Translations under genes and position numbers: made by a program | Shown here: piece after piece, positions 3,001 to 36,395 of the stretch | Layout: the number at the start of each line of letters is the position of its first letter | Numbering within the stretch: position 1 is the stretch's first letter | The notes under the pieces: model-generated | Seen by the model: only the letters and a program-made list of their open reading frames with translations | What the model was told of the DNA's origin: nothing | The model's database searches: none | Assembly: GCA_041650895.1 (NCBI GenBank) | Contig: JBAZKF010000001.1 | Coordinates: 359,156-423,155, forward strand | Source: Patescibacteria group bacterium | Lineage (GTDB): Bacteria > Patescibacteriota > Patescibacteriia > 2-01-FULL-39-33 | Reading direction: 5' to 3' | Length of the DNA: 64,000 nt

Positions 3001-6000
3001 AATTAAAGGTATCAATCAAAGCCTCGCAACCGGCCGCCTCCGGACGGCATAAAGAAGCAAAAGATCTTAAGTAAGACACTTTATTCTTACGATCCAGGTA
3101 ACCAGCGCAACCCAGCATCTCTCCAATAGAACAACGCCCAGACTGAGTATCTTGACAAACGCCTTCGGTCTTGGCCTTATTACCATCAGGATCATCTAAT
3201 TTATTATCGCAAGAAAGCGGAGTAAACCAGGAATTTTCGATGGCGTAAACTTGATTCGTAATTTCTTTAAGAATAATATTATCCAAATAAACAACCTGTC
3301 CGTTAGGCATAGAGAACTCCAAGTAATTGCCATCGCCCGGTTCCCAAGTTACAAATAGCGGTCCCAATTCATAACGTTTCCATTCCTCCGTTAATTGCGT
3401 CCGCGGATTAATCAAATTCTCCCCGAGTAAACGGCTGGCGGAAAAATAATTATTGCCGTTAGCGGCGGAATTATCATTCCAATTGATACCGCTCTTTTCA
3501 ACAAATCTAATATTATCAAGATAATAAGAAGCATTGCCTTTGGCCCAGAACGATAAAGTATAAGCTTTGTTCTTCTGAATTGTTATCGGGTAATGAATAG
3601 TAGGATTATTAACCTTATTAGACAGAGAATTACCGCCGGGGAAAGTCGATTCGGAAGAAATAAATAAGCCGTTTCTGCCGCCATTTGCGTCCTCCCACAA
3701 GTCCAAAGCAGTACTGCTGGCGGTAAAATTAACCACATTAATGGCGTTCTTAATATTATTACCTCGATTGCCGGTATAAGCACGACACCCCTGGGCGTTG
3801 GCCGGGCAAATTTTACCTTGTCCGGGGATGGCCATATAAATACATTCATTACTGCCGTTCCACCAACCACTATGGCTTTCGCAATTAGCCTTGGCCTCAG
3901 TAAATGAGGTTTCGGTCATGGTGCGGCGATACGGATGGCAATTATTGGAGACAGAAACGGTACGGGACAGTAAGCGATAATGGATATTGCCGTCTACATC
4001 GTATAATTCGCGGCAATCCGGATTGCTAACCATGTCATCCTTAGTACAAACGCCGAAATCATAACGACCGGCTTCTGCGCCATGGGTATTTGCGGAATCA
4101 TTACAAACAGCATTGCCCGAGGCGTTGTAAATCAAATTAGTGCAAGGAGCAGTGCCCTGGCCGACGCCGGCTGTTTCCGGATCACTGGCAACCTGTGATT
4201 TTTTCAAACTAAACGCTACCAACTGATAGCCGGTGATATCCGAACCCTCCCAAGTATAATAAGCTCCGTCATCAACTGATGGCTTTTGACAGGCTTGGAT
4301 TTGGCTATAGTATTCTTTTTGTTCTCCACCCTGTCCGGCAGTATCAAGGTTGGTAAACTCATCGCAACCGGCATAATTAGCGGAACAAGTCTTAAGTTTA
4401 CTGTCAGCAATAAATTGTCTGAAAGCTTGATTAATGAAACTGGTTTTCTCCTGGTTGTATAATTGATAACCGGCGCACTCCTTTGGGCAAGCATCGAAAT
4501 CCTGCGCCACGCCCGGTATTGACGGATCGCCATTAACGGGCCGATATAACTCACAGCCAACTTCTTGCGGCGTACAAACTCCGGCATAACGGGCGCAATT
4601 GGCATTTTTGTTTTTTAAGACGCTGGTTAACTCCTGTTGATTTTGCGGCCACTGCAAACCGGCAATATCCGGATAAGCGTCGTAACAGCTGAAATAGTCA
4701 GGGGCTTTCTTAAGATAAGCCACTTGTTCAACCGACCGAGCTGCCGGATTATAATCACTATAAATACTAGGATAAGTGGCATTGAAGGAAATCGCCTCAG
4801 TTTTGACATTATCAATAATCGCTTCTTGACCAGTTGCCCCAGTGGAAAACCACAGCTCCATCCTGGCTGCATTATCCGGTGCCTTAAACTTACAGAAGAA
4901 ACGACTAGAAGTCGCAAAAGAAGTAGGAGTGAACTTTAAGGCTAACGTCTGCGGGATGTTGCCATCTTTATCCTGAGCCCATTCGCAAGTCGCAGAAGAA
5001 GTGGCAACCGGCAAAACGGCCCCGGCTTTGGATTTGAATCTCAAGAAAGTTTCAATTAATGTCGCTTGATCGACAGAAATCTGATAACCATCAATAGCCA
5101 AAAAATAATACTGACCGGGAGTAACCTGGATCGTTTTATTGATATTGGCACTATCTAAGCCGCTTAAATAGCTGATTTTAGCTCTAGTGTTATCTGCCAA
5201 AATCAAATTGCTCCAATCATATAAAGTGCCGTCAAAACCGCCATTAATGACAACATTTCCGCCTAAATTTGATTTGGTGCGGATAAATTGGCTGCAACCG
5301 TCGCTCAAGGATGAGCAAGTCTGGGCATCACGATCAAAATACATCTCTGTCGCACCTTCGCGCGAGGAAACAAGAACCGACACGGCGCCGACGCCGCAAG
5401 CAGTACTGATAGGATAGAATTCAAAATCATCAAGATACAAATCAGCATAAACTCCGGCGGGATTACGGACTACCAGAATTATCTGCTCATTGTCGCCGGA
5501 ATTAAAATTAAGATTAGTTTCGCGCCAACCGGAAGAACCGCTGGTCAATTGCAGATTATTCAATAAGGAAGGCCACAAGGAACTATCTTGATCGAAAGAC
5601 GTAGCACCTTTACTGCCAGCCCGCACCTCCACATTAACACTGCCATTAATGGACCCTTTGTAATAGAACCTGACATTATAATTAGTGTTCTTCTCTACTG
5701 GTATGGCCGGTTCGTAACTGATCAGATCAGCCGGAGCATAAAGCGTCTTAATAAAAAGCGAAGCAACGCCACTGTGTTTCTCGGTGGTGACGCGAAGATG
5801 GCGATTATTATTATCAATGAACGCCAAAGTCCAGGAAGCGGCTTTCCACCCTTCCTGACTATTAAGCAATCCTTCCAAACCAAGGTTTGGCTTATTGGCT
5901 ACTTCGGCGGTATAAACGTCAGGGAATAATTTGGCATCATTACATAAACGCAACTGGCAGGACACGCCATTATCCGGAACATTACAAGAAGGATCGCGAG

Positions 6001-8251: not shown

Positions 8252-8287
8252 TTGTTTATACTTATTCAAAAACATAATCTACAATAT

Positions 8288-9334
8288 TTAAGTGGAGGTT
8301 GCCGTTGAAGAAACCACGCGCTTCTCTAATTCGCTAATAAATATCTGCTTCAGTTCATCATCGCCGGCGGCGTTTAAAATAGTGGAATCGCCGCCGGATT
8401 TAATCAGAATTTGTCTAATCTGCGCGCCGGACAACTCCTTAAAATCAGCCATAGTGGTAACACCGAATGATTCTAAATTAACATTAGCCCAACCGCTCGT
8501 AGCGGCGTCCGTCGTTTCTCCGATCAAGTCCGTTTGATCAATCAAATCATCTGTAGCACCCAAATCACCGCCAATTGCATAAGAAGAAAAAATAGTCGGG
8601 TCAATCAAGCCATATTGCTGTAATTGTTGCGCCATAGTCGGGTTATTCTGCAAATACTGGGCAAAAATCTGCATTAATTCATCGTCAGTGGTATCGGCTA
8701 AATCTTGATCACTAATGCCGCTGTCTTTTAACATTTGCCTGATAACGGACGGAGTCAAAGCCGAATAATTACTGGTCTGGCTAACAGTCGCTGTCGGAGT
8801 AGTCAAATCGGTGAGCTCAGAAGATAATGATCCGCTGACTGAAGGGCTGGCAGTAGAATCCATAGTGGGCAAACCAGTACATTTCTGGCCTTGCGGACAA
8901 TTCGGATCGGTGCCTCTATCCACTTCCATTTTATCATCCAAACCGTCAGAATCGCTATCTTTGAGGTAGGGACTGGTATGATAAACGCTTAACTCAAGAT
9001 TGTCGGCCAAACCGTCAGCATCCGTATCACGGGTCATCATGTCTCTAATCTGCGCCTGTTGCAAAGCCAGCCTTTCCGCGCGGGATTTGTTGCCGGCTTT
9101 AACTATATCCTGAAAAGGATTTTGACTGGCTAAAAAAAACTGCCAAAAACCAAAAACAAGGGCCATTAACCCGATTACTGCGATCAAAACTGTATGCATT
9201 TTTTCCTTGCCTGTAAGTGACTGGCTGATGCCTGAATCTTTGTTGGAGGCTATACTATTGCCTACTTCCAAATTTTTCAAATAATCAGGTTCTTTATCTT
9301 CACTTACCGGCTGGAATTTTTCACTACCTTCCAT
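8288..9334 (-). CDS. Membrane-anchored protein with thrombospondin-type-3-like Ca-binding Asp repeats (DTDADGLAD, DSDSDGLDD), probably co-transcribed with the giant protein gene
   Basis: 348-aa ORF with one TM helix (VLIAVIGLMALVFGFWQFFLA), DxDxDG motifs and a Ser/Thr-rich C-terminus. It ends 37 bp upstream of the giant ORF start. Confidence 0.6.
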   Translation of the reverse strand: MEGSEKFQPVSEDKEPDYLKNLEVGNSIASNKDSGISQSLTGKEKMHTVLIAVIGLMALVFGFWQFFLASQNPFQDIVKAGNKSRAERLALQQAQIRDMMTRDTDADGLADNLELSVYHTSPYLKDSDSDGLDDKMEVDRGTDPNCPQGQKCTGLPTMDSTASPSVSGSLSSELTDLTTPTATVSQTSNYSALTPSVIRQMLKDSGISDQDLADTTDDELMQIFAQYLQNNPTMAQQLQQYGLIDPTIFSSYAIGGDLGATDDLIDQTDLIGETTDAATSGWANVNLESFGVTTMADFKELSGAQIRQILIKSGGDSTILNAAGDDELKQIFISELEKRVVSSTATST

Positions 9335-9490
9335 TTAGAGGTGTGGATAAGTTATGTATTAATTATACCACAAAATCGTTTTCGTAAAAAGATTTATATT
9401 AGAACATTTAAATAATGAATAAATCAAGGAAACAAAAAAACAATAATTACCTATTCTGTTACCTTATCGCCTAATTATTGTCTTATTTTA

Positions 9491-10291
9491 TTATTTGATT
9501 GTTTCCGCCAATTTCACCCAATCTTCTACGCCCAAGTCTTGCGCGCGGATCTTCTCATCCATTCCTAACCCGATCAAAATCGAACGAACCTGCTTTTCCG
9601 GCAGATGCAATCCGCCGGACAAATTATTCTTCATTTGTTTTCTTTTGGCGGCAAAACCGATACGCGCCAAACGGAAAACCTGCTTGGCTCCAGCCGGCGA
9701 AGGTTGCTTTAACTTTATCCGGACTACCGCCGAATCCACCGCCGGAGCGGGCCAAAAACATCCGCGACCGACTTCAAACAATATCTGCGGCTCACCAAAA
9801 AGCTGGGCCGACAAACTCAACAAAGACATTTCTCCCGGCTTAGCCATCAGCCTTTTGGCCACTTCCTTCTGTAACATCAAAATCATTTCTGTTGGCTTTG
9901 GTCCGGTTTCCAAGAATAATTTTAGAAACGCCGCAGTAATGGAATACGGCAAGTTGGCAACAATGCGATAAGAAAAATCCGTAAATCCCTCAGCCGCCAA
10001 ATTAACCCGCAAAATATCACCGGCAATTAATTTGATCTTAGGAAAATTGGTTTTAATATAAGAGATTATTCTTTCGTCTAATTCCACTGCCACTAAATTG
10101 TCAGTGGCCTTAGCCAGCTCTTCGGTCAATACGCCCAATCCCGGTCCGACTTCCAAGATTTTTTCTCCTGGTTCAACGCCGGCGGCGACCATAATTTTTT
10201 TGACAATATTGGCATCAATTAAAAAATTCTGCCCCTTGGACTTGGACGGCCTGATATCATACTGCTGGCATAAGGATTTAACATCAATCAT
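9491..10291 (-). CDS. rsmA: 16S rRNA (adenine1518/1519-N6)-dimethyltransferase RsmA/KsgA
   Basis: Carries the GQNFL motif and an EVGPGLGVLTEEL SAM-binding motif; 266 aa. Confidence 0.85.
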   Translation of the reverse strand: MIDVKSLCQQYDIRPSKSKGQNFLIDANIVKKIMVAAGVEPGEKILEVGPGLGVLTEELAKATDNLVAVELDERIISYIKTNFPKIKLIAGDILRVNLAAEGFTDFSYRIVANLPYSITAAFLKLFLETGPKPTEMILMLQKEVAKRLMAKPGEMSLLSLSAQLFGEPQILFEVGRGCFWPAPAVDSAVVRIKLKQPSPAGAKQVFRLARIGFAAKRKQMKNNLSGGLHLPEKQVRSILIGLGMDEKIRAQDLGVEDWVKLAETIK

Positions 10292-11475
10292 AAACGATAA
10301 AACAAATAGAATAAAGTAAAAATTGCGCCAACGATGAACATCGTGTTCCAGCCCGGCGCCACCAACTGCAAAGCCAAGAAGCAGACAATCATGGCCGCTA
10401 TCTTGCCCAAAACCAAAGTCATCTCAAAAAACACAATGGAATTCATCACCGAACTGTCCCTGGCATCCTTATAAACAAAAGCGGTAATCGGCACCGTCAG
10501 GGAATCCTTGGAGATGCGGGAAAAAATATCCAAAAGCAGCACCCCCCAAGGCAAACGTGTTACCAATTTAAGCAACCAGCTAAAAAAATAAAAAACAATG
10601 CCGTAGCCTAAAATTTGCTGACGAGGGCTCCTATCCGTCCAACGGCCAATAAACAATAGGACGACCAAAGAAATTAAAGTTGATACTGCTGAGAGAATAC
10701 CAAGATTAAGATAAGTGCCGACCGCCAAAAAAACAAAAATCGGCCAAATGATCAAAATAATCCACTCTTCACCAAAGCCCAGATTAGCCCAGAACCTAAG
10801 TCTGTTTTCTTTGGCAAGGATACGCTTAAAAGCCTCGCGATAGCTGAATGGTTTAGGATCAAACTTTTCCTTAGTGATTAACATGGGAATATTAGAAACC
10901 AAAATGAGTATGGCAGTAACCACAAATAACACTTTGAAACCGTAAAATTGCACAATCAAACCACCGACTAAAGGAGAAATAACATAAACAATATTTAAAA
11001 TAACGTACAAATTGCTAATTTGCCTGCCCTGCTCGCCATCAGAGGAAAACTTAGCAAAATTAGAATGGTAAGACGGCCAATAAAGCATCTTAAAAATTAC
11101 ATAGGGTATGGTCGCCAGCCAAACCGCAGGTGCAAAACGATTAGCGGAAAACAACAAAAAATACATTAACACCATAAAAGGCGTAGACAGGGCAATGGAG
11201 TTCTCGTAACCGAAGCGGCGGGCAAATTTGGCGCCAAACGGCACTAAGAAAAAATACGGAATATAAACCAACAAATAAAAAAGAATGATTAACTCTAATG
11301 TATTTTGCAAATTATTAGTCTGTGAAAAAAAAATATATAAAAATACCGGTTCAAAAATACTAACCATACAGACGGCAAAATCCAAAATAATGGAAGAAGC
11401 ATAAAGCTCCTTCACCTGACGAGTCAACCGGTGAGCAAAAAATGACGATAAAACATTTAGTGGATTGCGGCTCAT
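10288..11475 (-). CDS. Polytopic membrane transporter (MFS-like)
   Basis: 395 aa with about 12 predicted hydrophobic helices; overlaps the rsmA start by 4 nt. Confidence 0.5.
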   Translation of the reverse strand: MSRNPLNVLSSFFAHRLTRQVKELYASSIILDFAVCMVSIFEPVFLYIFFSQTNNLQNTLELIILFYLLVYIPYFFLVPFGAKFARRFGYENSIALSTPFMVLMYFLLFSANRFAPAVWLATIPYVIFKMLYWPSYHSNFAKFSSDGEQGRQISNLYVILNIVYVISPLVGGLIVQFYGFKVLFVVTAILILVSNIPMLITKEKFDPKPFSYREAFKRILAKENRLRFWANLGFGEEWIILIIWPIFVFLAVGTYLNLGILSAVSTLISLVVLLFIGRWTDRSPRQQILGYGIVFYFFSWLLKLVTRLPWGVLLLDIFSRISKDSLTVPITAFVYKDARDSSVMNSIVFFEMTLVLGKIAAMIVCFLALQLVAPGWNTMFIVGAIFTLFYLFYRL

Positions 11476-12458
11476 GATCTTCTAATTGTTTTATAAATAA
11501 AATATAACAAAGGATTAGCGACCAGATCATAAGCCCCGGCATACTTAGTCAGCGGGAGCTGAGGGGCAAAACCGACCTTAAACCTAGTCACGCCCGGCCA
11601 TTTATCAGGATCGGCGCCAAAAAAGTCATAATGTTTGCAACCGCGGTTCTGTGCTTCCCTAATCATTTCCCATTGCAATAAGTATGGCGCCATTTTTTCC
11701 CGTGCCTCGTAAGCCGAAGCGCCATGCAGGTAATAACACCAACTACCATAGAACATCATAATGGCAGTAGCAACAGCTTGGCCATTAACTTGAGCAAAAA
11801 CTAATTTTATTTCCGGCTGTTCCAGCATTTTCCGATAATATTCTTCGGGATGAACGGCTATATTATCACGCTTAGCTGTTTGTTTCATTAACACCAGGAA
11901 CTCGCTTAATTCCTTTTGCGGATTAATGCTGGTTATTATTTTTACGCCGTGTTTCTGCGCCACTTTGATATTGTAACGGGTCTTAGGCTTCATCGCTTTC
12001 ATCAAATCCTCTGCAGATTCGGCCAAGTCCAAAACTAGAGTACTCCGAGGCTGGACTTGCCCGCTGGACTTTAATTCATTGGCTATCAAAATATCGTCCC
12101 CCTCCCAGGCCGGATCCATCCTGACAAAAATCGCTTTTTCTTCTTGTGCCAACTTCTTCAATCCTGATAAAACATTTTCAAAAATCTCCTGTCTCTCAAT
12201 CCTGGGCTCAGATTTGATTATCGGCCCTCGAGGCAGATAAAAATAACCCAGCCTGCCGGGCAGCGGCTGGCGAACAATCAGAGCCACGGCAATAATCTTA
12301 TTACCATCCAACCAAGCCAGGCGCCAAATCCGTCGGCCATAAGACCGCTGAAACTCCCCCCAATCCCAAGATTGTAATAAACCTCCGTCAGCGGCATTAG
12401 CCAAGACGAATTCTTCCCAAGAACGGCGATTAAGATTAAAAACTTTTTCTAATTTCAT
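11472..12458 (-). CDS. FemAB-family peptidoglycan aminoacyltransferase
   Basis: 328 aa with FemAB-like sequence (…YYLHGASAYEAREKMAPYLLQWEMIREAQNRGCKHYDFFG…). Confidence 0.6.
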   Translation of the reverse strand: MKLEKVFNLNRRSWEEFVLANAADGGLLQSWDWGEFQRSYGRRIWRLAWLDGNKIIAVALIVRQPLPGRLGYFYLPRGPIIKSEPRIERQEIFENVLSGLKKLAQEEKAIFVRMDPAWEGDDILIANELKSSGQVQPRSTLVLDLAESAEDLMKAMKPKTRYNIKVAQKHGVKIITSINPQKELSEFLVLMKQTAKRDNIAVHPEEYYRKMLEQPEIKLVFAQVNGQAVATAIMMFYGSWCYYLHGASAYEAREKMAPYLLQWEMIREAQNRGCKHYDFFGADPDKWPGVTRFKVGFAPQLPLTKYAGAYDLVANPLLYFIYKTIRRS

Positions 12459-21925: not shown

Positions 21926-22690
21926 TTATTTTTCAGTCAAATACACAAACTCGCGAGCTAAGCGTTCGTAAGCCTTAGCCCCCTTAGATTTAGGGTCGTA
22001 CCCCAAAATAGTCTTGCCATGACTGGGTGCTTCTGATAAACGCACACTGCGAGGGATTACTGTGCGGAATATTTGATTGGGAAAATAATTATACAACTCA
22101 CTTAAAACATCATTAGCCAGCTTGAAACGACTGTCATACATCGTCAGAACCACACCCAAGATATCCAATTCCGGCTTAAGATTTTCGCGGATTAAACCGA
22201 TGGTATCAACTAACTGGCCCAAGCCCTCCAAGGCAAAATATTCGGCTTGCACTGGAATCATCAATTTATCGGCCGCAGTTAGGCCGTTTAAAGTCAAAAG
22301 CCCCAATGATGGCGGACAGTCAATGATAATATAATCATAGTTTTTCTTGACTTCCAATAAATTATCATAAAGCCGGAATTCACGGCGGTCAAGATTGACA
22401 AATTCCACGTTGGCGCCGGCCAAAGAAGTAGTGGAGGGGGCCAGATGATAATTTTCATGGCCGGTTTCTACGGCTACATCAGAAAAAGAGTAGGGACCGG
22501 TTAAAACCTCATACACGCCACGGTCTAAATTCTTGGCTACGCCCAAATGCGAAGTAGCGTTGGACTGAGGATCAAGATCAACCAAAAGCACGCGTTTACC
22601 CAGGCGGCTTAAAAACGCGGCTAAATTAACGGAGGTGGTGGTCTTGCCGACTCCGCCTTTTTGATTAACAACGGAAATTACTTGTCCCAT
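21926..22690 (-). CDS. parA: Chromosome partitioning ATPase ParA/Soj
   Basis: Contains the deviant Walker A motif KGGVGKTT. Confidence 0.9.
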   Translation of the reverse strand: MGQVISVVNQKGGVGKTTTSVNLAAFLSRLGKRVLLVDLDPQSNATSHLGVAKNLDRGVYEVLTGPYSFSDVAVETGHENYHLAPSTTSLAGANVEFVNLDRREFRLYDNLLEVKKNYDYIIIDCPPSLGLLTLNGLTAADKLMIPVQAEYFALEGLGQLVDTIGLIRENLKPELDILGVVLTMYDSRFKLANDVLSELYNYFPNQIFRTVIPRSVRLSEAPSHGKTILGYDPKSKGAKAYERLAREFVYLTEK

Positions 22691-22773: not shown

Positions 22774-22845
<72 letters not shown>

Positions 22846-22934
22846 CTAACCAATCACTGATTAATAATTACTAATTACGAATATAATTATTTTAATTCGT
22901 AATTTGAAATCCGTAATTTGTAATTGACATTTGT

Positions 22935-23007
22935 TGCGGGGGGCGGATTCGAACCGCCGACCTCTTGGTTATGAGCCAAGCGAGCTGCCGGACTGCTCTA
23001 CCCCGCG
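22935..23007 (-). tRNA. tRNA with CAU anticodon and a C1·A72 mismatch (initiator-like tRNA-fMet)
   Basis: Reverse complement reads CGCGGGGTAGAGCAGTCCGGCAGCTCGCTTGGCTCATAACCAAGAGGTCGGCGGTTCGAATCCGCCCCCCGCA. The acceptor stem 5' C pairs against 3' A, as in bacterial initiator tRNA. Confidence 0.7.
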
Positions 23008-23052
23008 ATAATATTTTATTTTCCATCTCTCCCTAAATAGATGAGATTGATG

Positions 23053-23134
23053 TGCCCGAGGAGAGACTCGAACTCTCACATATTGCTATACACGATTTTG
23101 AGTCGTGCGCGTCTACCAGTTCCGCCACTCGGGC
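23053..23134 (-). tRNA. tRNA-Leu (CAA), type II with long variable arm
   Basis: Reverse complement reads GCCCGAGTGGCGGAACTGGTAGACGCGCACGACTCAAAATCGTGTATAGCAATATGTGAGAGTTCGAGTCTCTCCTCGGGCA. Confidence 0.8.
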
Positions 23135-24846: not shown

Positions 24847-26103
24847 TTATTTGATTAAGCGTCGCAGTTTATCGGCATTTAAGCCCGGCCCGATCAAAGC
24901 TAGATTGACGCGTTTAAAATCAAAAATATCCTTGGCCACCCGTTGCACTTCTTTGGCCGATACTGCAAAAATCTTTTTTAATTTCTGCTCCGGCGTCATT
25001 AACGGCTTATTCATTAATTCCTGATTGACATAAAACTGCGCAATAGACATGGAATCCTCCAAATCCAAAGCGGTCTTTCCGGCAACGAATTCTTTGGCTC
25101 GATTCAATTCCTCAGCAGTCACGCCGCCAGCCAGGATACTTTTAATTTCTAAAATAATCGCCTCTAAAGCCAACTCCAACCGCGCCTTGTCCAAGCCTGC
25201 CTGAATCACTAATAACCCGGTATCCTCATACAGATTCGGCCAGGAACGGATAAAGTAAGCTAGGCCCTTTTGTTCCCGTATGTTAATGAATAAACGCGAA
25301 CTCATATTGCCACCGAGAATAATCGCTAGAAGATTCAAGGCGGGAACGCGTTTATCATGAGTGGACCAAGCAGGAAAACCCAAAGCCAACTGTACTTGTT
25401 CTGTCGCCTTATCCTTGATTTTTATCCTCGGCTTTTGTTGTTTAATTATTGATCGTTTAATGGCTGACTTTTTTCCGCCGGGCAAAGAGAATTTAGCCGA
25501 GATTTCCTTGATCTGCTTATCGCTGAATTTTCCAGCCAAACCGATAACGACATTGGCGCCGTTATAATAATTACGTTTGTAGGCCAAAAGTTTTTTTCTG
25601 TCCAGTCCCCTGACTGTTTTCTTACTGCCGGCAATCAGATGACCCAGCTGCCCGCCGTCAAAGACTAATTCCTCCAACATCTCCTCCACATGCATCAAGG
25701 GATTATCCTCATACATATTGATCTCTTCCACAATCACACCCTTCTCTTTTTCCAACTCAACGGCATCAAATTTAGAATTAATAACCATGTCCGACAGCAT
25801 ATCAATAGCCAGTGGCAAGTGCCGAGCATCGGATTTGATATAATAACCGGTCATATCCTTGCCGGTAAAAGCGTTGTATTCCGCACCAATGCCGTCCAGC
25901 TCCTTGGACAAATCCAAGGTCGTCGGACGCCGATCCGTCCCCTTAAACATCATATGTTCAATAAAATGAGAAACACCTCTAAGCTGTGGCGTTTCCTGGC
26001 GGCTACCCACCTTAAACAGCACCAGCAAGCTGGCAGTCTGAGTATCATGAAGCGGCGCCGTAATCAATCTGATGCCGTTTTTCAGGGTTTGCTTTTTATA
26101 CAT
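24847..26103 (-). CDS. M16-family zinc peptidase (insulinase/pitrilysin-like)
   Basis: HxxEH motif (HFIEHMMFKGT); 418 aa. Confidence 0.8.
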   Translation of the reverse strand: MYKKQTLKNGIRLITAPLHDTQTASLLVLFKVGSRQETPQLRGVSHFIEHMMFKGTDRRPTTLDLSKELDGIGAEYNAFTGKDMTGYYIKSDARHLPLAIDMLSDMVINSKFDAVELEKEKGVIVEEINMYEDNPLMHVEEMLEELVFDGGQLGHLIAGSKKTVRGLDRKKLLAYKRNYYNGANVVIGLAGKFSDKQIKEISAKFSLPGGKKSAIKRSIIKQQKPRIKIKDKATEQVQLALGFPAWSTHDKRVPALNLLAIILGGNMSSRLFINIREQKGLAYFIRSWPNLYEDTGLLVIQAGLDKARLELALEAIILEIKSILAGGVTAEELNRAKEFVAGKTALDLEDSMSIAQFYVNQELMNKPLMTPEQKLKKIFAVSAKEVQRVAKDIFDFKRVNLALIGPGLNADKLRRLIK

Positions 26104-26156
26104 AAACTTATTTTTGCTAAATTTACAAAGTATTTTAATATTTTCGCTATTTTCCT

Positions 26157-26185
26157 ATTGACAAATAATATGGATATGCTATAAT
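26157..26185 (+). promoter_or_regulatory. Strong sigma70 promoter TTGACA-16nt-TATAAT, orphan (points into the 3' end of the convergent NYN gene)
   Basis: Sequence ttgacaaataatatggatatgctataat; there is no plus-strand CDS downstream. Confidence 0.5.
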
Positions 26186-26191
26186 TACGAT

Positions 26192-26252
26192 AGAATCACG
26201 ACGAGAGAGGTTCTCTAAGGGTTTCGTCCCGACGAGAGCCTTTTTCATTTGT
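26192..26252 (+). ncRNA. Candidate small RNA (about 60 nt) driven by the orphan promoter, with nested stem-loops and a 3' T-run
   Basis: acgatagaatcacGACGAgagaggttctctaagggttTCGTCccgacgagagcctttttc: imperfect hairpins followed by TTTTT. Confidence 0.3.
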
Positions 26253-26781
26253 GTTTATTTTTATACTCCAACTTACCCTTCAAAGCATTTAAAAAAATCA
26301 AAATATTATTTGCCGAGGAACTTAAGCGATCCAAAAGACAAGAATAATTATTTTGATTCGGAATTAACACTCTCTTGAGTTTTGAGTTATTAATTAGATA
26401 TTCTACCAAACAATAAAAATCACCATCACCGGAAACAATAATGGCCTTATCATAATTAGAATATTCAATCATGGCGTGCAATACCAATTCGGCATCTACG
26501 TTACCCTTAACTGTGCCATCAGCTAATTCCAGTGTCGGTTTAAATACGCAAATATAGCCATACTCCTGTAATTTTGTATACATCGCTTGATTACCGGGTT
26601 TAAAGCCGATGAATAGGAAGGCCTTTTCAATGCCATATTTATCTTTAAGATAAATCCTGAATCTTCTATAATCAAGCTGCCAGCCGGAATAAATCTTCCG
26701 GTCTTTTTTATAAATGTCTTTTGACAAGCTTTGATATAAATTATTGCTGTCAATAAAAGCGTAGTTTTTTCCTTGTGGCAT
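26245..26781 (-). CDS. NYN-domain (LabA/DUF88, PIN-like) putative RNase, immediately downstream of the DGR RT on the same strand
   Basis: NYN hallmarks YAFIDSNNLY…, KAIIVSGDGDF; 178 aa. Confidence 0.65.
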   Translation of the reverse strand: MPQGKNYAFIDSNNLYQSLSKDIYKKDRKIYSGWQLDYRRFRIYLKDKYGIEKAFLFIGFKPGNQAMYTKLQEYGYICVFKPTLELADGTVKGNVDAELVLHAMIEYSNYDKAIIVSGDGDFYCLVEYLINNSKLKRVLIPNQNNYSCLLDRLSSSANNILIFLNALKGKLEYKNKHK

Positions 26782-26801: not shown

Positions 26802-27788
26802 TTAGCAAGTATAAGCCAAATTAGCAATTTTTCGTTGTAATTTATAGCTCTGGCCGTGACTCAATAAACCCAAATATGAATTCATGGTTTCCGGGTTATG
26901 ATTTTTCCTCACTCGCCTGAACATCCTTCTTTTACTCGCCGTCCGAAACACCCGATGATCAAAAAAATTCACCCAACCCAGAAAGTCTAAGCCGGGACTT
27001 AAAGTTTTGATAAATAGCTTATCGGGATGAAGCGTCAGTTTCATTTTATCTCTCAAATAAGCATCAACCGATGGAATTATTTTTTCCAAATAATTTTTAT
27101 CATCAGCCATAATCACGAAGTCATCGGCATAGCGGATATAATATTTTACTTTCAGTTTATGCTTAACAAATTGATCAAATCTGTTCATATAAATATTAAC
27201 CAATAACTGCGAAGTTAAATTCCCCAACGGCAAACCTCCGTTAAAACTGTCAATCGCCTCGTCTAATAAACCCAAAATCTTTTTATCCGGAATATACTCG
27301 GCCAGGATATTTTCCAATATCCCATGATCGATATTGGCAAAAAATTTCCTGATGTCACCCTTTAAAATCCAACAAGTGTGGGTGTTATTCTGGCTGGCTT
27401 TGTAAGCAAATTTCTTGAATCTGGCCAAGGCCTTATGCGTGCCCTTGCCCAGCCGGCAGGAATAAGAATCGACGATGAAAGTCCGGTCAAAAAACGGATA
27501 CAAAATCCGATAAATCGCATGATGAACCAACCTATCACTGACCGACGCCTTATGGATTTGCCGCGACTTGGGATCGCAGATCTTAAAGGCCTGGTAGCCG
27601 CCATGGCGATAAGCGCCGGTTGCCAAATCCCGATGCAATGCGATAAGATTATCCATAAGGCGCAATTGGAATTCCTGCACGTCTTTTCTATTCCTTTTGC
27701 CCCTGACAAACTCCTGCCAAGCCAACAATAAATTATCAAGACAGATAATCTCTTCAAAAGTATGGCTCAACTTGATTTTCCCGTTCAT
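26802..27788 (-). CDS. Diversity-generating retroelement (DGR) reverse transcriptase
   Basis: RT domains with a YADD catalytic box (YIRYADDFVIM) and motif 4 LPLGNLTSQLLVNIYM (the DGR-specific xGxxxSQ, not the QGxxSP of group II/retron RTs). 328 aa, no maturase or endonuclease domain. Adjacent TR/VR pairs are present. Confidence 0.9.
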   Translation of the reverse strand: MNGKIKLSHTFEEIICLDNLLLAWQEFVRGKRNRKDVQEFQLRLMDNLIALHRDLATGAYRHGGYQAFKICDPKSRQIHKASVSDRLVHHAIYRILYPFFDRTFIVDSYSCRLGKGTHKALARFKKFAYKASQNNTHTCWILKGDIRKFFANIDHGILENILAEYIPDKKILGLLDEAIDSFNGGLPLGNLTSQLLVNIYMNRFDQFVKHKLKVKYYIRYADDFVIMADDKNYLEKIIPSVDAYLRDKMKLTLHPDKLFIKTLSPGLDFLGWVNFFDHRVFRTASKRRMFRRVRKNHNPETMNSYLGLLSHGQSYKLQRKIANLAYTC

Positions 27789-27815
27789 AATGATTCCTTT
27801 AATTTACCCCCCCCC

Positions 27816-27825
27816 CAACGGAAAA
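27816..27825. repeat. C10 homopolymeric tract between the divergent RT and avd1 genes
   Basis: cccccccccc in an AT-rich intergenic/5' region; a candidate slipped-strand phase-variation site. Confidence 0.6.
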
Positions 27826-27834
27826 TTTATCCCG

Positions 27835-28140
27835 TTGATTCAAAAAACCAAAACGCTATACATAGTATGGCATGGTTACTACCAATCTCTACCCAAAACC
27901 CATAAATACTCATTGGGTCAAAAAATCGACATCTTCTTTATTGAGGCGATTGAAGCTATGGCTACCGCCAGTTTCCTGCCACCACAAGCCAAACCGCCTC
28001 ATATCTGCCTAGCAATTCAAAAAATTGATTTGATAAAAATCATGCTAATGATTCTATGGGAGATAAAGGCGATTGATAATAATAAGTATTTAAATCTATC
28101 GCAACCACTAGACGAAATCGGCCGGATGCTAGGCGGCTAG
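27835..28140 (+). CDS. Avd-like four-helix-bundle (23S rRNA IVS protein family) accessory protein, copy 1 (start uncertain; no in-frame ATG until 27958)
   Basis: The C-terminus …LWEIKAIDNNKYLNLSQPLDEIGRMLGG matches the Avd/four-helix-bundle family C-terminal helix (…EIGkmLggW). It is paralogous to copy 2 with synonymous third-position differences in this frame. It is on the strand opposite to the RT and TR. Confidence 0.45.
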   Translation: MIQKTKTLYIVWHGYYQSLPKTHKYSLGQKIDIFFIEAIEAMATASFLPPQAKPPHICLAIQKIDLIKIMLMILWEIKAIDNNKYLNLSQPLDEIGRMLGG

Positions 28141-28149
28141 TACAACAAA

Positions 28150-28185
28150 CTGACAAAACAAAACTCCCCGGATAAACTCAGGGAG
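28150..28185 (-). terminator. Hairpin CTCCC-N12-GGGGAG plus T-run immediately 3' of TR1 (minus sense): DGR RNA 3' structure or terminator
   Basis: Minus-sense sequence …cgcaac tctctttatttttCTCCCtgagtttatccGGGGAGttttgtttt. The same element follows TR2. Confidence 0.5.
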
Positions 28186-28199
28186 AAAAATAAAGAGAG

Positions 28200-28320
28200 T
28201 TGCGGAGCGCAGCCGGATTATCGACGTTGAAGTCGTTATCAAGCCAGTTGTAGTTCCAGTTCCATCTGTCGCCATTCCAGTACAGGTAACGCACATACAG
28301 GTTGTCGTCCGAGTTGCGAT
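28200..28320 (-). repeat. DGR template repeat TR1 (cognate to VR1 at 28702-28822)
   Basis: 121-nt match to VR1. All 20 mismatches fall on TR adenines in the minus sense (TR AAC, GAC, TAC, AAT or AGA codons against G, D, C, R or F codons in the VR). Minus-sense TR1 encodes …RNSDDNLYVRYLYWNGDRWNWNYNWLDNDFNVDNPAALRN. Confidence 0.9.
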
Positions 28321-28576
28321 TTTCGCAAAATTCCGCCTAAACCACCATCCGTTGATCCGCCGACTGGCGGAATCTCCAGATTGAATCTTATGCGTGAGCT
28401 AAACTCACATAGAACATTGCGCCAAGTATCTTTACTTTAATTAGGCATTAATATATTACGCTACTACTGACATTGATCAGTAATATTCTGAATAATACTA
28501 ACACCGGCTGAGGTAGCGGATAGCCGTAACCAACCGCGGATTTACCTGTGGCTATTTACATAATAGCAGAATAATT

Positions 28577-28619
28577 TGAAAAAATAAATCCTGCACAAGT
28601 CAGATGACCGATGCAGGAT
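28577..28619 (-). terminator. Intrinsic terminator of target gene 1 (hairpin atcctgca…tgcaggat plus T-run on the minus strand)
   Basis: An 8-bp perfect stem followed by TTATTTTTT in the minus sense. Confidence 0.6.
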
Positions 28620-28697
28620 ATTTTGTACAAAATTTAGGGCTAAGGACTAAAGTTTAAAATTTCAAGAACTGAAAATCAAAATTCTAAGTCCAAAGGA

Positions 28698-29255
28698 CTA
28701 CTTGCGGAGCGCAGCCGGATCACCGACGCCGAAGCCGCCATCAAGCCAGCCGTAGCCCCAGTCCCATCCGCCGCCACCCCAGCACAGGTAACGCACAAAC
28801 AGGCGGTCGTCCGAGTCGCGATAAATAGTCCCCCAAAAGAAAATACATTTGCCTTTCCATTCTTCCGGAATCAACTCGAGATGTGCGAGTAAATAGTCAA
28901 GAACATTAGCGTTCAAGACCAGCTTGCCGGCCAACAACTTACGCAAAGCGTGACCTTTGACGATGTTATTCTTCTGGTCATTGGCCAGATAAAGCTCAAT
29001 CAATGCCGGATTCCACTCCAGTTGACCGCCCTTCTGGTGTTCTTCAACTTTCCAGCCGGACGGAACGAAAGGATGAACGTCGCAGTCAATAATGTACTTG
29101 GTCACGATGATTTCCGCCAAGCCATGCAGCACTTTCTTGAATTCCGCCAAACTCTTAAACTGCTGGAGCTTCGTCATCTCCTCCGGCGTATAACCAGCAG
29201 CTTCAAAAGCATCCATTACCTTGTTGGCTTGGCCTACCGAGTAAAGCGTGGACAT
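28698..29255 (-). CDS. DGR target (variable) protein 1; C-terminal VR at 28702-28822
   Basis: Probable start MSTLYSVGQ… with RBS AGGAGA; the track ORF extends to 29285 via GTG. The C-terminus …FVRYLCWGGGGWDWGYGWLDGGFGVGDPAALRK differs from the TR1-encoded peptide only at Asn/adenine-containing codons. It is paralogous to target 2 (shared core …VLDYL…IPEEWK…FFWGTI…). Confidence 0.85.
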   Translation of the reverse strand: MSTLYSVGQANKVMDAFEAAGYTPEEMTKLQQFKSLAEFKKVLHGLAEIIVTKYIIDCDVHPFVPSGWKVEEHQKGGQLEWNPALIELYLANDQKNNIVKGHALRKLLAGKLVLNANVLDYLLAHLELIPEEWKGKCIFFWGTIYRDSDDRLFVRYLCWGGGGWDWGYGWLDGGFGVGDPAALRK

Positions 29256-29338
29256 AGTCCATCTCCTTTTTGCGGACACGTTCACTTTGGAACCCGTCCA
29301 GTTTGAGGTGCGAATTGGCCTTGCATACAGAGCAATTC

Positions 29339-29367
29339 CAATATATTAAGTATAGCACGTATTATAT
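29339..29367 (-). promoter_or_regulatory. Promoter of target gene 1: TTGACA-17-TATACT (minus strand), with a TTTATCCAC motif just upstream
   Basis: Reverse complement reads TTGACAaaatatataatacgtgcTATACT. Confidence 0.5.
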
Positions 29368-29455
29368 ATTTTGTCAATAGATTTATCCACTCTACCAACT
29401 AACTAATTATTTTTATCTAAATTTAAACAAAAAATCACCACTATCTATTGGGATA

Positions 29456-29701
29456 ATGGAAGCAATTGCCACGGCCAGTTTCCTGGACAAACTGAGTAAG
29501 TCGCCGTATGTGGAAACAGCGATCAGAAAAACTGATATTTTAAAAATATTATTATTACTTTTGTGGGAGACAAAATCATTAGATAATAATAAATATTTGG
29601 CCTTATCAATTAAGATTGATGAGGTGGGCAAAATGCTTGGCGGCTGGAAAGGACAATTACTAAGTAAAAACTCCCCCGACAATAAAGCGGGAGAGAAATG
29701 A
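29456..29701 (+). CDS. Avd-like four-helix-bundle accessory protein, copy 2 (81 aa)
   Basis: MEAIATASFL…LWETKSLDNNKYLALSIKIDEVGKMLGGW…; resembles the BPP-1 Avd C-terminus (…EVGRILGSW…). A 40-nt upstream element (aaatttaaacaaaaaatcacc…ttgggataATG) is shared with a truncated third copy at 31508-31556. Confidence 0.5.
   Translation: MEAIATASFLDKLSKSPYVETAIRKTDILKILLLLLWETKSLDNNKYLALSIKIDEVGKMLGGWKGQLLSKNSPDNKAGEK
29663..29695 (-). terminator. Hairpin CTCTCCCGC-N-GGGGGAG plus T-run immediately 3' of TR2 (minus sense), homologous to the element after TR1
   Basis: Minus-sense sequence …gcaactcacttcatttCTCTCCCgctttattgtcGGGGGAGttttta. Confidence 0.5.
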
Positions 29702-29707
29702 AGTGAG

Positions 29708-29829
29708 TTGCGAGAACCGCAGCCGGATTATCGACGTTGAAGTCGTTATCAAGCCAGTTATAGTTCTCATTCCACTGGCTGTCGTTCCAATACAAGTAAC
29801 GGACGTAGAGGTTGCCATCAGAGTTGCGG
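29708..29829 (-). repeat. DGR template repeat TR2 (cognate to VR2 at 30184-30305)
   Basis: 122 nt, with no indels against VR2. The minus-sense sequence encodes RNSDGNLYVRYLYWNDSQWNENYNWLDNDFNVDNPAAVLA against the VR2 peptide RRSDGRLYVRCLFWSGSQWRGCYSWLDSGFVGGSPAAVLA. Most mismatches fall at TR adenines, and four non-adenine mismatches cluster at the 3' end (IMH/IMH*-like). Confidence 0.85.
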
Positions 29830-30065
29830 TTGTATGTGGCGCGCCGCCGATATCACTGCCCGTCGAATACTCTCTGGGCTGGATCTTATTTGTGATCTTA
29901 AATCACTTAGCGCTCCGCACCAAGTATCTTCATTTTTGAAGTTTCTACAGGCGCCACACTGCCTGAAGCCTTGACCGCAGGCATTCTCGGCGACTGGACA
30001 CTGGATTCGGTGGCAAGCAGCCATAACCGCTTGCTGATATTCACCTAATACCTTTTTTATTTTAG

Positions 30066-30101
30066 CATAAAAAATAATCCCGAACCATTGCTGATTCGGG
30101 A
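30066..30101 (-). terminator. Intrinsic terminator of target gene 2 (ttcccgaa…ttcggga plus T-run)
   Basis: A 7-bp stem followed by TTATTTTTT in the minus sense. Confidence 0.6.
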
Positions 30102-30169
30102 ATATGTTCAAAAAAATTGCATTAAGGTCAAATTTCCCAAGGATCCATATAGATCCAGGAAATCAAGAC

Positions 30170-30847
30170 CTAAGCGCTGATACTTGCGAGAACCGCAGCG
30201 GGGCTGCCGCCGACGAAGCCGCTATCAAGCCAGCTATAGCACCCACGCCACTGGCTGCCGCTCCAAAACAAGCAACGGACGTAGAGGCGGCCATCAGAGC
30301 GGCGGAAAATTGTGCCCCAGAAAAAGATAAAGATAATATTTCCTTTTTCATTTTTTTCCTTCCACTCTTCGGGGATGTACTCCTGATTGGCCCTAAGAAA
30401 GTCCAGAACGCTTGCCGACAACACCGGCCGGCCGTCAAGTTCTTTACGTAGTTCATGGCCGACAATAAATCGACCGTTAACCTGGAGCGTTGAGCGATAC
30501 AAAACGACTTTCTGTCCGTCAATGTATAAACCGTCAAATCTCTTTTCAATTGAAATCTTGCCCTGGCGGGCATGTTTCTCAACTGTTGCGTCAGTAAATG
30601 GCGGTCGCGGATCATTGTCCGTATCAATTACCGCCCGAAGGATCGGCGTTGTCTGGCGCAGAAATTCCTCGCCGATTTCCTTGAGTTTCTCAACAAAAAA
30701 ACTCTTGCCCGGACCAGTCGCCCAATCAATCACTTCGGCGCCGACCTTGATTTTCTTCAGAGTTGCGGCTATCAGCGAGAATAGATTGGCGAGCGCCGCC
30801 ACAAACTGCCCGACTTCCTTCCAATTCAAACTCTTTTTCGTCGACAT
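30170..30847 (-). CDS. DGR target (variable) protein 2; C-terminal VR at 30184-30305
   Basis: 225 aa; paralogous to target 1, and its C-terminus matches the TR2 product apart from differences at Asn codons. Confidence 0.85.
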   Translation of the reverse strand: MSTKKSLNWKEVGQFVAALANLFSLIAATLKKIKVGAEVIDWATGPGKSFFVEKLKEIGEEFLRQTTPILRAVIDTDNDPRPPFTDATVEKHARQGKISIEKRFDGLYIDGQKVVLYRSTLQVNGRFIVGHELRKELDGRPVLSASVLDFLRANQEYIPEEWKEKNEKGNIIFIFFWGTIFRRSDGRLYVRCLFWSGSQWRGCYSWLDSGFVGGSPAAVLASISA

Positions 30848-35455: not shown

Positions 35456-35905
35456 ATGTCGGTGATCACCAAAAACAAAGAAGGCTTGTTCGGTTATGAG
35501 ATTATTGACACCTGGCGAGCCGGCATTGTTCTGTCCGGTCCGGAAGTTAAGGCGGTTAAGTTGGGACAAATCAGCCTGAAAGGAAGTTTTGTTCAAATTG
35601 ACAATAAAAACGAAGCTTGGATAGTTAATTGCCATATCAGCCCCTATAAACCGGCTAAAGGCCACCAAAACGGCTATAACCCCGATAAAAGCCGTAAACT
35701 CCTCCTAAACAAAAAAGAAATCGCCTCAATTATAGGCAAAAAAGCCCAAAAGGGGTTGACAATTATCCCCATTTCGGTATATACTTATAAAAGACTAATC
35801 AAGGTGGAAATCGGACTGGCCCGCAGCCGAACCAAGGTAGACAAGCGAGAGGTCGTCAAAAAACGAGAGCAAGAACGGGAGATAGAAAGAACGTTGAAAA
35901 AGTAA
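35456..35905 (+). CDS. smpB: SsrA-binding protein SmpB
   Basis: …GYEIIDTWRAGIVLSGPEVKAVK…; 149 aa. Confidence 0.85.
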   Translation: MSVITKNKEGLFGYEIIDTWRAGIVLSGPEVKAVKLGQISLKGSFVQIDNKNEAWIVNCHISPYKPAKGHQNGYNPDKSRKLLLNKKEIASIIGKKAQKGLTIIPISVYTYKRLIKVEIGLARSRTKVDKREVVKKREQEREIERTLKK

Positions 35906-36007: not shown

Positions 36008-36395
36008 GGGGATGTTTTGCTTTGATAGAGATAATGTTTTCCTATTAGCAAACCGAGCATGGCGGCAAACTCGTTAATCCGTCGCCACAGGCAAAAATGC
36101 CAAAAACATCTTAGCTAAAGTCCAATCTGCTTTTAGCAGCCTGGCTTTGGCTCCTGTTCTCGCTTAATATCGAGAACCATCGCCGCGCCCATTCCCGGTA
36201 AGCGCTAAGCGGTGTTATATTATCGGGATCGCCACTGACGTCGCCAGAGCGCCCTTGGTCAAACTTTTCTGGATCGCTTAAGGATTTTTTGCCGCTTTTT
36301 CAGTCCTTAAGTCAGAATATAAAACGGCTAAGTTTGTATCACTTTAGGGGATAATTTATTTCTAGACAGGGGCTCATTACCCCTCATCTCCACAC
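36008..36395 (+). ncRNA. ssrA: Candidate tmRNA (ssrA) downstream of smpB
   Basis: The 5' GGGGATG pairs with the 3' CATCTCC, followed by a discriminator A (acceptor stem). An internal ORF …AKNILAKVQSAFSSLALAPVLA ends with TAA inside the loop of the hairpin gttctcg-cttaatat-cgagaac. A T-arm-like GGGG-ctcatta-CCCC lies just before the 3' end. The length, about 388 nt, is typical. The region is a 575-nt non-coding gap. Confidence 0.45.

Follow-up and report, generated by a model that had tools for sequence, protein, structure and literature searches.

In a 64,000-nucleotide (nt) stretch of the genome of a Patescibacteria group bacterium (assembly GCA_041650895.1, contig JBAZKF010000001.1, positions 359,156 to 423,155; hereafter the window), a gene for a predicted NYN-domain nuclease follows the reverse transcriptase (RT) gene of a diversity-generating retroelement (DGR). 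Does this nuclease serve the retroelement? Both genes lie on the minus strand, NYN downstream of RT, with a gap of exactly 20 nt. A first-pass annotation of the sequence had reported this gap correctly, and had proposed that NYN might be an RNase partner that processes the template RNA or cDNA of the DGR or, failing that, an unrelated neighbour. Our analysis indicates that the NYN gene is not a DGR component, and that its adjacency to RT is an ordinary genomic neighbourhood. What the first-pass annotation overlooked is the conserved partner of NYN, a small RNA gene that lies directly past its 3′ end and faces it, which is the constant companion of this NYN subfamily whatever the surrounding genes. 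Protein and RNA may well form a nuclease/RNA-antagonist module of toxin–antitoxin (TA) or defence-like character that stands beside the DGR by chance, a reading to which we give a probability of about 0.55.

The RT of the window belongs to a genuine DGR, complete with RT, adenine-specific pairs of template repeat (TR) and variable repeat (VR), and the accessory gene Avd. Adenines of the TR account for 21 of the 23 differences between TR1 and VR1, and for 21 of the 27 between TR2 and VR2 (Table 1). The layout is the ‘TR-(avd)-RT’ B3 architecture reported for 90% of the DGRs of the candidate phyla radiation (CPR), and the accessory classes listed in the same survey are Avd, HRDC, MSL and CH1, with no nuclease domains (Wu et al. 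2018, PMC5758913).

The association of NYN with DGRs was counted from both sides. The NYN-side sample comprised 80 loci, one genome per species, with NYN relatives of 51–96% identity and up to 10 kb of flank each; the RT-side sample comprised 80 metagenome loci with RTs 59–83% identical to the window RT (loci are designated L001 and so on). Searches by tblastn with the window RT detected a DGR-type RT within 10 kb in three of the 80 NYN loci, namely L012, L013 and L051, and a NYN gene was present in a single RT locus, L092, which comes from the lineage of L012. The window synteny RT–NYN–M16 peptidase–GT4 recurs in L012 and L013, whereas in L051 the RT is convergent with NYN. Across the NYN and RT loci compared, RT–NYN pairs are confined to the window lineage (L012, L013, L005 and L092) and the convergent L051. 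The recurrent linkage expected of a DGR accessory gene is absent (one of 80 RT loci; three of 80 NYN loci, in two lineages), and of the two possibilities raised by the first-pass annotation it is the unrelated neighbour that these counts support.

A further result comes from L005, whose NYN protein is 88% identical to that of the window. Its RT lacks residues 200–258, including the YADD box, and carries a frameshift, and yet the TR/VR pair, an intact NYN gene and the small RNA all remain. The DGR of L005 is recently inactivated; its RT lies at 7116–7951, and VR and TR (6135–6263 and 6625–6753) are still 85% identical. NYN is thus kept without a working DGR. Both outcomes that the first-pass annotation had itself named as speaking against a partnership, the lack of co-occurrence elsewhere and the retention of NYN in relatives without the DGR, are borne out by the counts and by L005, and its proposal of an RNase that processes TR RNA or cDNA is left unsupported by the counts and by this locus.

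The strongest form of that proposal would make NYN a lineage-specific DGR accessory nuclease, co-transcribed with RT, that processes TR transcripts or clears away intermediates, be they template RNA or cDNA. It could draw on the shared strand and the 20-nt gap, in which a scan found no promoter-like or terminator-like site, on the retention of the arrangement in L001–L004, L012 and L013, on the second, differently oriented adjacency in L051, and on the fact that DGR RTs have neither an RNase H nor a nuclease domain (Wu et al. 2018, PMC5758913). In the window NYN also occupies a cassette position on the RT strand, as Avd, HRDC, MSL and CH1 do, being small genes in or beside the cassette. Those genes, however, are distributed clade by clade along the RT tree (Wu et al. 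2018, PMC5758913), whereas NYN is missing from 79 of 80 close relatives of the RT and outlasts RT loss, contrary to the retention only beside a working DGR that an accessory gene should show. Conversely, 77 of the 80 NYN relatives have no RT, and the convergent RT of L051 leaves no common architecture. The known accessory classes include no nuclease, no link between NYN and DGRs was found in the literature searched, and NYN has a different and universal partner. This explanation, largely refuted by the co-occurrence counts, we consider extremely improbable.

Loci L105 and L113 suggest how the present arrangement arose. In these two more distant relatives, the M16 peptidase gene directly follows RT with no NYN between them (L105: RT 336–1310, M16 1358–2614, gap ~48 nt; L113, within 4553–8306: RT 6001–6969, M16 7065–8306, gap ~96 nt), so the DGR–M16 adjacency may be ancestral, and NYN with its RNA a later insertion of 0.65 kb. 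A 72%-identical NYN homologue lies between uvrC and recR/ybaB/dnaB in six metagenomes. In the window lineage NYN is probably co-transcribed with RT; in the window it has no recognisable promoter of its own and is probably read through from RT.

The small RNA gene of the window has its own promoter, which lies in the interval between the NYN stop codon and the start of the M16 gene, is aimed at the 3′ end of NYN and is conserved in L001, L005 and L013 (Table 1). Judged from the −10 box, transcription would start at about 26192–26194. A conserved single-stranded 5′ tail, AUCACGACGA from 26195, leads into a hairpin (26203–26245) with the apical loop UUUCGU, and the U-run (26241–26245) reaches exactly to the final base of the stop codon of NYN (26245-27). 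The hairpin has a fold energy of −24.9 kcal/mol (z −3.8) and shows one compensatory change, from U-A to C-G, among close relatives. The two covariance models described below, R1 and R2, match at 26195–26250 with 33.5 and 60.4 bits, respectively. The 33-aa open reading frame (ORF) on the other strand was considered as a coding sequence and rejected: substitutions between the window and L005 or L013 are mostly non-synonymous, and the promoter and RNA features are preserved. It is probably non-coding, its sequence being that of the promoter and small RNA gene read from the other strand. We also observed a weaker promoter-like site for the M16 gene at 26137–26164 on the minus strand, with its −35 region back-to-back with that of the small RNA promoter (TTGTCAA/TTGACAA), so that the promoter of M16 may overlap the inserted module or be supplied by it.

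The same layout is found nearly everywhere in the 3′ flanks of all 80 NYN loci. It consists, on the strand opposite NYN, of a −35 box, a −10 box, a spacer of 6–9 nt, the tail AUCAC(G/C)A(C/U)GA, a hairpin with an apical loop (U)UYNGU closed by GG(G)/CC(C), and a U-run. The hosts, as labelled, are Patescibacteria, Omnitrophota, Chloroflexota/Dehalococcoidia, Elusimicrobia, Nitrospirae, Thermodesulfovibrionia, Planctomycetota, Bacteroidia and others. Of 68 loci, 52 have a promoter with at least 10 of the 12 consensus positions where one is expected, compared with 0.6% of shuffled flanks. The U-run ends 0–4 nt from the NYN stop in 33 of 67 loci, and the overlap of the RNA with the NYN ORF ranges from −10 to +64 nt. 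At least three stem variants can be told apart, type A outside the CPR, and types B and C together with a fourth variant within it. An 11-codon AUG frame in the type-A RNAs was tried as a coding sequence and discarded; because it is absent from types B and C, the small RNA is regarded as non-coding.

Covariation argues in the same direction. When 32 type-A copies were aligned with MAFFT, blind to structure, the three-helix hairpin paired in 93% of its cells, and eight of its 12 pairs changed on both sides, a result reached by none of 500 shuffles, while slid controls gave 53–72%. The counts of G·U against A·C, 26:5 for type A and 9:1 for type C, favour the strand antisense to NYN. Combined with the evidence of promoter and U-run, they indicate a functional RNA on that strand. 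The covariance model R1, built from type A only, gave 58 matches with E<0.01 in 1.16 Mb, and all 58 lie directly 3′ of NYN on the opposite strand. R2, built from the R1 matches, places the RNA directly 3′ of NYN in 79 of the 80 loci, and the sequence of the remaining one, L061, ends 27 nt past the NYN match. R2 also matches L005, L006 and both NYN-bearing viral contigs. In 0.57 Mb of control DGR loci, R1 and R2 match L092 alone, the sole control locus with a NYN gene.

The small RNA family is apparently undescribed. Rfam 15 gave no match at the gathering threshold for the window and eight loci, and nothing at L080; the best sub-threshold match was ctRNA_p42d, with 24 bits against a cut-off of 50. 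No description of the small RNA was found in the literature searched. Pairing of the 5′ tail with the translation-start region of NYN gave no signal (mean z −0.27, 66 loci). A likeness of the tail to the sarcin-ricin loop or to the 3′ end of 16S rRNA, noticed by eye, was discarded, since the bases concerned fall in covarying stem positions or amount to mere 7-mers.

The hairpin, flanked by an A-run and a U-run, falls precisely on the stop codon, which raises the possibility that the element is an insulator only, a strong convergent promoter and bidirectional terminator that keeps transcription from running into a promoterless NYN cassette or leaving it, with no trans-acting RNA. The lack of a conserved promoter for NYN itself would fit. 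An insulator, however, has no need of a 5′ tail (AUCACGAYGA) or an apical loop conserved across phyla, and orphan RNA copies in viral transcription units (see below), which have neither promoter nor U-run, would be left unexplained. We consider it very unlikely. Conservation of the single-stranded 5′ tail and the loop across phyla argues for recognition by a protein.

Table 1. Positions of the features discussed, in window coordinates except for the orphan RNAs of viral contigs.
Feature	Position	Strand	Remarks
M16 peptidase gene	24847..26103	-	downstream neighbour of NYN
ORF of 33-35 aa called in relatives L001-L005	26147..26248	-	33 aa in the window; overlaps NYN stop (ATGA)
Small RNA promoter	26158-26185	+	sigma-70 consensus: TTGACA, 16 nt, TG-extended TATAAT (12/12)
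Small RNA gene, ~55 nt	26192..26250	+	convergent with NYN; covariance models R1, R2
NYN/LabA-like nuclease gene	26245..26781	-	PF01936, COG1432 group; ATG start, 178 aa, intact
DGR reverse transcriptase gene, 328 aa	26802..27788	-	RVT_1, E 1e-22
Avd accessory gene	27697..28140	+	NCBIfam DivGenRetAVD, E 1.7e-13; Avd-like part residues ~46-147
Template repeat TR1	28172..28321	-	VR1 28674-28823, in 3′ end of target gene 28698-29285
Second Avd copy	29456-29701	+	truncated to 81 aa
Template repeat TR2	29682..29831	-	VR2 ~30184-30305, in 3′ end of target gene 30170-30847
Viral orphan RNA, L172	3662-3715
Viral orphan RNA, L173	3509-3559
Viral orphan RNA, L174	455-505
Viral orphan RNA, L175	6494-6544
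Viral orphan RNA, L176	3331-3391

The protein partner, recognised in the first-pass annotation by its FIDSNNLY and IVSGDGDF motifs, is confirmed as a NYN/LabA-like protein of 178 aa. These motifs stand in the ORF as YAFIDSNNLYQ and IIVSGDGDFYC, and Pfam NYN (PF01936) matches residues 9–140 with 49.4 bits (cut-off 24.2, E 9e-13). In an alignment of 15 homologues (58–100% identity), D11, D96, D119 and D121, which correspond to the conserved acids of the metal-binding site of the NYN domain, are invariant, as is E98. The AlphaFold model (pLDDT 88.5) has a PIN-like alpha/beta fold; in a Foldseek search with this model, 2QIP is the only match in the PDB with E≤0.001 (E 4e-7, TM 0.67–0.73), and it is the best solved-structure match by sequence profile too (E 5.6e-11). 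All defining features of the LabA-like NYN/COG1432 group that we checked are present, and the protein is predicted to be an intact, catalytically plausible, metal-dependent nuclease. PADLOC gave weak matches only, to the ‘NYN, LabA-like’ model (E 2.6e-4) and to HEC-09 (E 3.1e-4), and a scan of NCBIfam and PHROGs gave none. The family is large: clustering at 90% identity gives at least 8000 clusters, and clustering at 50% gives 95 with E≤1e-30 and 692 with E≤1e-10.

The LabA-like proteins, such as 2QIP (VPA0982 of Vibrio parahaemolyticus), share with the window protein the domain, the acidic residues, the fold and the stand-alone form of ~170 aa. Compared with them, the window subfamily adds a conserved C-terminal extension (…KLEYK), and its obligatory convergent small RNA gene is unique as far as we found. 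In the literature searched, no RNA partner of LabA or COG1432 proteins is described. The NYN.COG1432 cluster is listed as being of unknown function (Matelska et al. 2017).

Apart from the RNA, NYN keeps no constant company. When the ORFs lying up to 4 kb to either side of NYN in the 80 loci were all clustered, no protein-coding neighbour was common to more than five loci, and there is therefore no protein antitoxin or operon partner. The distribution is patchy, and the context differs even between homologues that are 72–80% identical. Many loci lie among housekeeping genes (UvrC/RecR/DnaB, MurB, DnaK, IleRS). In L039, L044, L070 and L071, which come from different phyla, NYN and its RNA stand between a PLD-SNF2 helicase (~1065 aa) and an Eco57I/MmeI-like methyltransferase (~1100 aa); this arrangement, which extends ~3 kb to either side of NYN, resembles a horizontally transferred restriction- or defence-type operon. 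A Taylorbacteria locus, L030, carries at 8281–12363 at least three tandem NYN paralogues (59%, 51% and 35% identical to the window protein), each with an RNA of its own, and between the paralogues a fourth, weak NYN-like match (21% identity) at which no RNA was detected.

Decayed copies follow one direction. L067 has a second NYN copy with an internal deletion and a frameshift that has retained its RNA, and in L012/L001 a 59-aa N-terminal fragment of NYN is followed by a weak small-RNA match. An orphan RNA gene lies just upstream of NYN in L015 (9893–9946). No intact NYN gene without an RNA was found among those with a readable 3′ flank. We also noted tandem or partial RNA hairpins without a matching nuclease gene in L056 (~10480–10576) and L062 (10472–10515). 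The NYN fragment of L012/L001 lies within an island (L001 11654–16537, equal to L012 13654–18537) that also holds GIY-YIG, a serine recombinase, a radical SAM protein and SocA/Panacea; this 96%-identical relative carries it at a position where the window has none.

Orphan RNAs occur in viruses as well. Five IMG/VR viral contigs carry a type-A-like RNA (52–64 bits) with no NYN gene beside it, placed within phage gene clusters that include lysis genes, SSB, a Cas4-like nuclease and structural-looking genes (Table 1). The NYN protein itself was found on only two of 2.9 million viral contigs. A scan of viral contigs with a type-B sequence pattern returned only spurious matches in coding sequences, which were discarded.

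A different account would have the pair act as a housekeeping or regulatory ribonucleoprotein, the RNA being a cofactor, specificity subunit, natural substrate or cis-antisense regulator of the NYN level. The protein is very conserved, with 52–60% identity across phyla and the 95 clusters mentioned above; the tail and loop of the RNA are much more conserved than cis-antisense pairing would demand; the neighbours of many loci are housekeeping genes; and tRNA or rRNA processing was earlier proposed for bacterial NYN proteins (Matelska et al. 2017). This account sits poorly, however, with the patchy distribution and the changes of context at 72–80% identity, with the paralogue array of L030, with the restriction-modification-like embedding in four phyla, and with the RNAs that decayed nuclease copies have kept and the orphans of viral contigs. 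We hold it to be unlikely, if clearly less so than the insulator.

The same observations are what we would expect of a nuclease held in check by its RNA. We propose a compact and self-contained two-gene module of ~0.65 kb, made up of the NYN nuclease and an RNA of ~55 nt with its own promoter. The RNA would be transcribed convergently, would terminate at or inside the stop-codon region of NYN, and would antagonise the nuclease, either through binding to the protein or through base pairing at the 3′ end of the NYN mRNA. The pair would persist and move as a unit, in a TA or defence-like manner, and in the window lineage it would have landed between the DGR RT and the M16 gene, where NYN is probably read through from the RT transcript. 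We favour an antagonist because the pairing is obligatory, the module compact, its distribution patchy with a variable context, and its paralogues arrayed; because it is occasionally embedded in restriction-modification-like operons and has orphan copies in viruses, which recall the pseudo-ToxI of phages; and because decay is asymmetric, the nuclease being lost with the RNA kept, and never an intact nuclease found without its RNA. A more far-reaching version, in which the pairs constitute a new and widespread RNA-antidote TA or anti-phage family that extends from CPR to Bacteroidota and includes at least thousands of protein clusters at 90% identity, with the RNA neutralising the nuclease directly and decoy RNAs of phages disarming it, we put forward tentatively and at somewhat less than even odds.

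Known RNA-controlled systems offer partial parallels. Type I TA systems with convergent antisense RNAs that overlap the 3′ end of the toxin gene include txpA/RatA and bsrG/SR4 of Bacillus subtilis, and nuclease-type toxins under antisense RNA control are known from SymE/SymR and RalR/RalA of Escherichia coli. The NYN module shares with type I pairs a small RNA with a strong promoter of its own, transcribed convergently and overlapping or abutting the 3′ end of the protein gene, as well as compactness, several copies and variable context; the antisense RNA gene with its own promoter at the end of the toxin gene is thus present at NYN. A type I toxin, however, is a small hydrophobic peptide, a feature absent here, where the protein is a soluble PIN-like NYN nuclease. 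The overlap of RNA and ORF is often only 0–4 nt, the RNA keeps its sequence across phyla, something not needed for cis-antisense pairing, and no pairing with the translation start of NYN was detected.

The type III TA systems ToxIN, CptIN and TenpIN provide the second parallel, and a phage-encoded pseudo-ToxI is known to neutralise ToxN. Here the likeness lies in the pairing of a predicted endoribonuclease with a structured, non-coding RNA that varies in sequence along with the protein family, and in orphan copies of the RNA in viral genomes. The type III RNA, however, is an upstream tandem-repeat array in one operon with its nuclease, whereas the NYN-associated RNA is a single unit of ~55 nt, downstream and convergent, with its own promoter; the nuclease has the ToxN/AbiQ fold in the one case and the NYN fold in the other. 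The conservation of the RNA across phyla beside a conserved protein suggests that it may bind and inhibit NYN in a type III-like manner. PIN toxins of the VapC type, which belong to type II TA systems, resemble the module in their PIN-like nuclease, two-gene organisation and variable context, but their antitoxin is a protein, whereas the partner here is an RNA and no conserved upstream antitoxin ORF accompanies NYN. By analogy, the NYN–RNA module would work most like the type I pairs with 3′-overlapping antisense RNA or the type III pairs; because one defining feature of each is missing, we do not class it as either.

Several points weigh against the antagonist reading or narrow its basis. The role of the RNA as antagonist is one that we infer from sequence comparison. 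No conserved promoter or motif was found upstream of the NYN gene when the loci were compared. For type B, to which the RNA of the window belongs, the ratio of G·U to A·C is only 8:7, which is ambiguous as to the strand. The R2 scores are circular for the 64 sequences from which the model was built, and only some 20 loci count as independent detections. Orphan RNAs of viruses come from only five contigs, three of them near-identical, and are missing the promoter and U-run. Neither the protein nor the RNA was found among the PLSDB plasmids and INPHARED phages, so the mobility of the module rests only on its variable chromosomal context. Finally, among 80 loci DGR and NYN are adjacent in two different arrangements, which may be more than chance would give, and there may be a weak association of the two, for example through shared accessory islands.

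The remaining features of the surroundings can be stated briefly. On the minus strand, the DGR of the window runs in the order target gene 2, TR2, truncated Avd (on the opposite strand), target gene 1, TR1, Avd (again opposite), RT and NYN. At 28172–30847 it thus has two tandem units of target gene with VR and TR served by a single RT, and an opposite-strand Avd-like ORF after each unit. TR1 and TR2 are two distinct templates, because they differ at 23 of 124 aligned positions. Three tRNA genes in a row occupy 22774–23134 on the minus strand, between parA (21926–22690) and a membrane-protein ORF. A transfer-messenger RNA (tmRNA) gene is a classic integration hotspot; in L080 (Nitrospirae) the NYN–RNA module at 10479–10950 adjoins one, and in the window the tmRNA gene (36008–36395) and smpB (35456–35905) lie ~10 kb from the module.

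Taken together, these results indicate that the CPR DGRs of the window clade need no dedicated nuclease, and that a neighbouring gene should not be read as a component of a DGR cassette without co-occurrence counts. In the window lineage, transcription of the DGR may nevertheless drive NYN incidentally. The comparative evidence for the existence of the NYN–RNA module is strong, and its function is what we infer. Within the LabA-like NYN family, which comprises thousands of sequences and is listed as being of unknown function, one sharply defined subfamily has an obligatory small RNA partner, and a protein of 178 aa with an RNA of 55 nt offers a direct experimental handle on the function of NYN nucleases. 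The pair may represent a new class of RNA-controlled nuclease modules in uncultivated bacteria, one against which a phage countermeasure may already exist.

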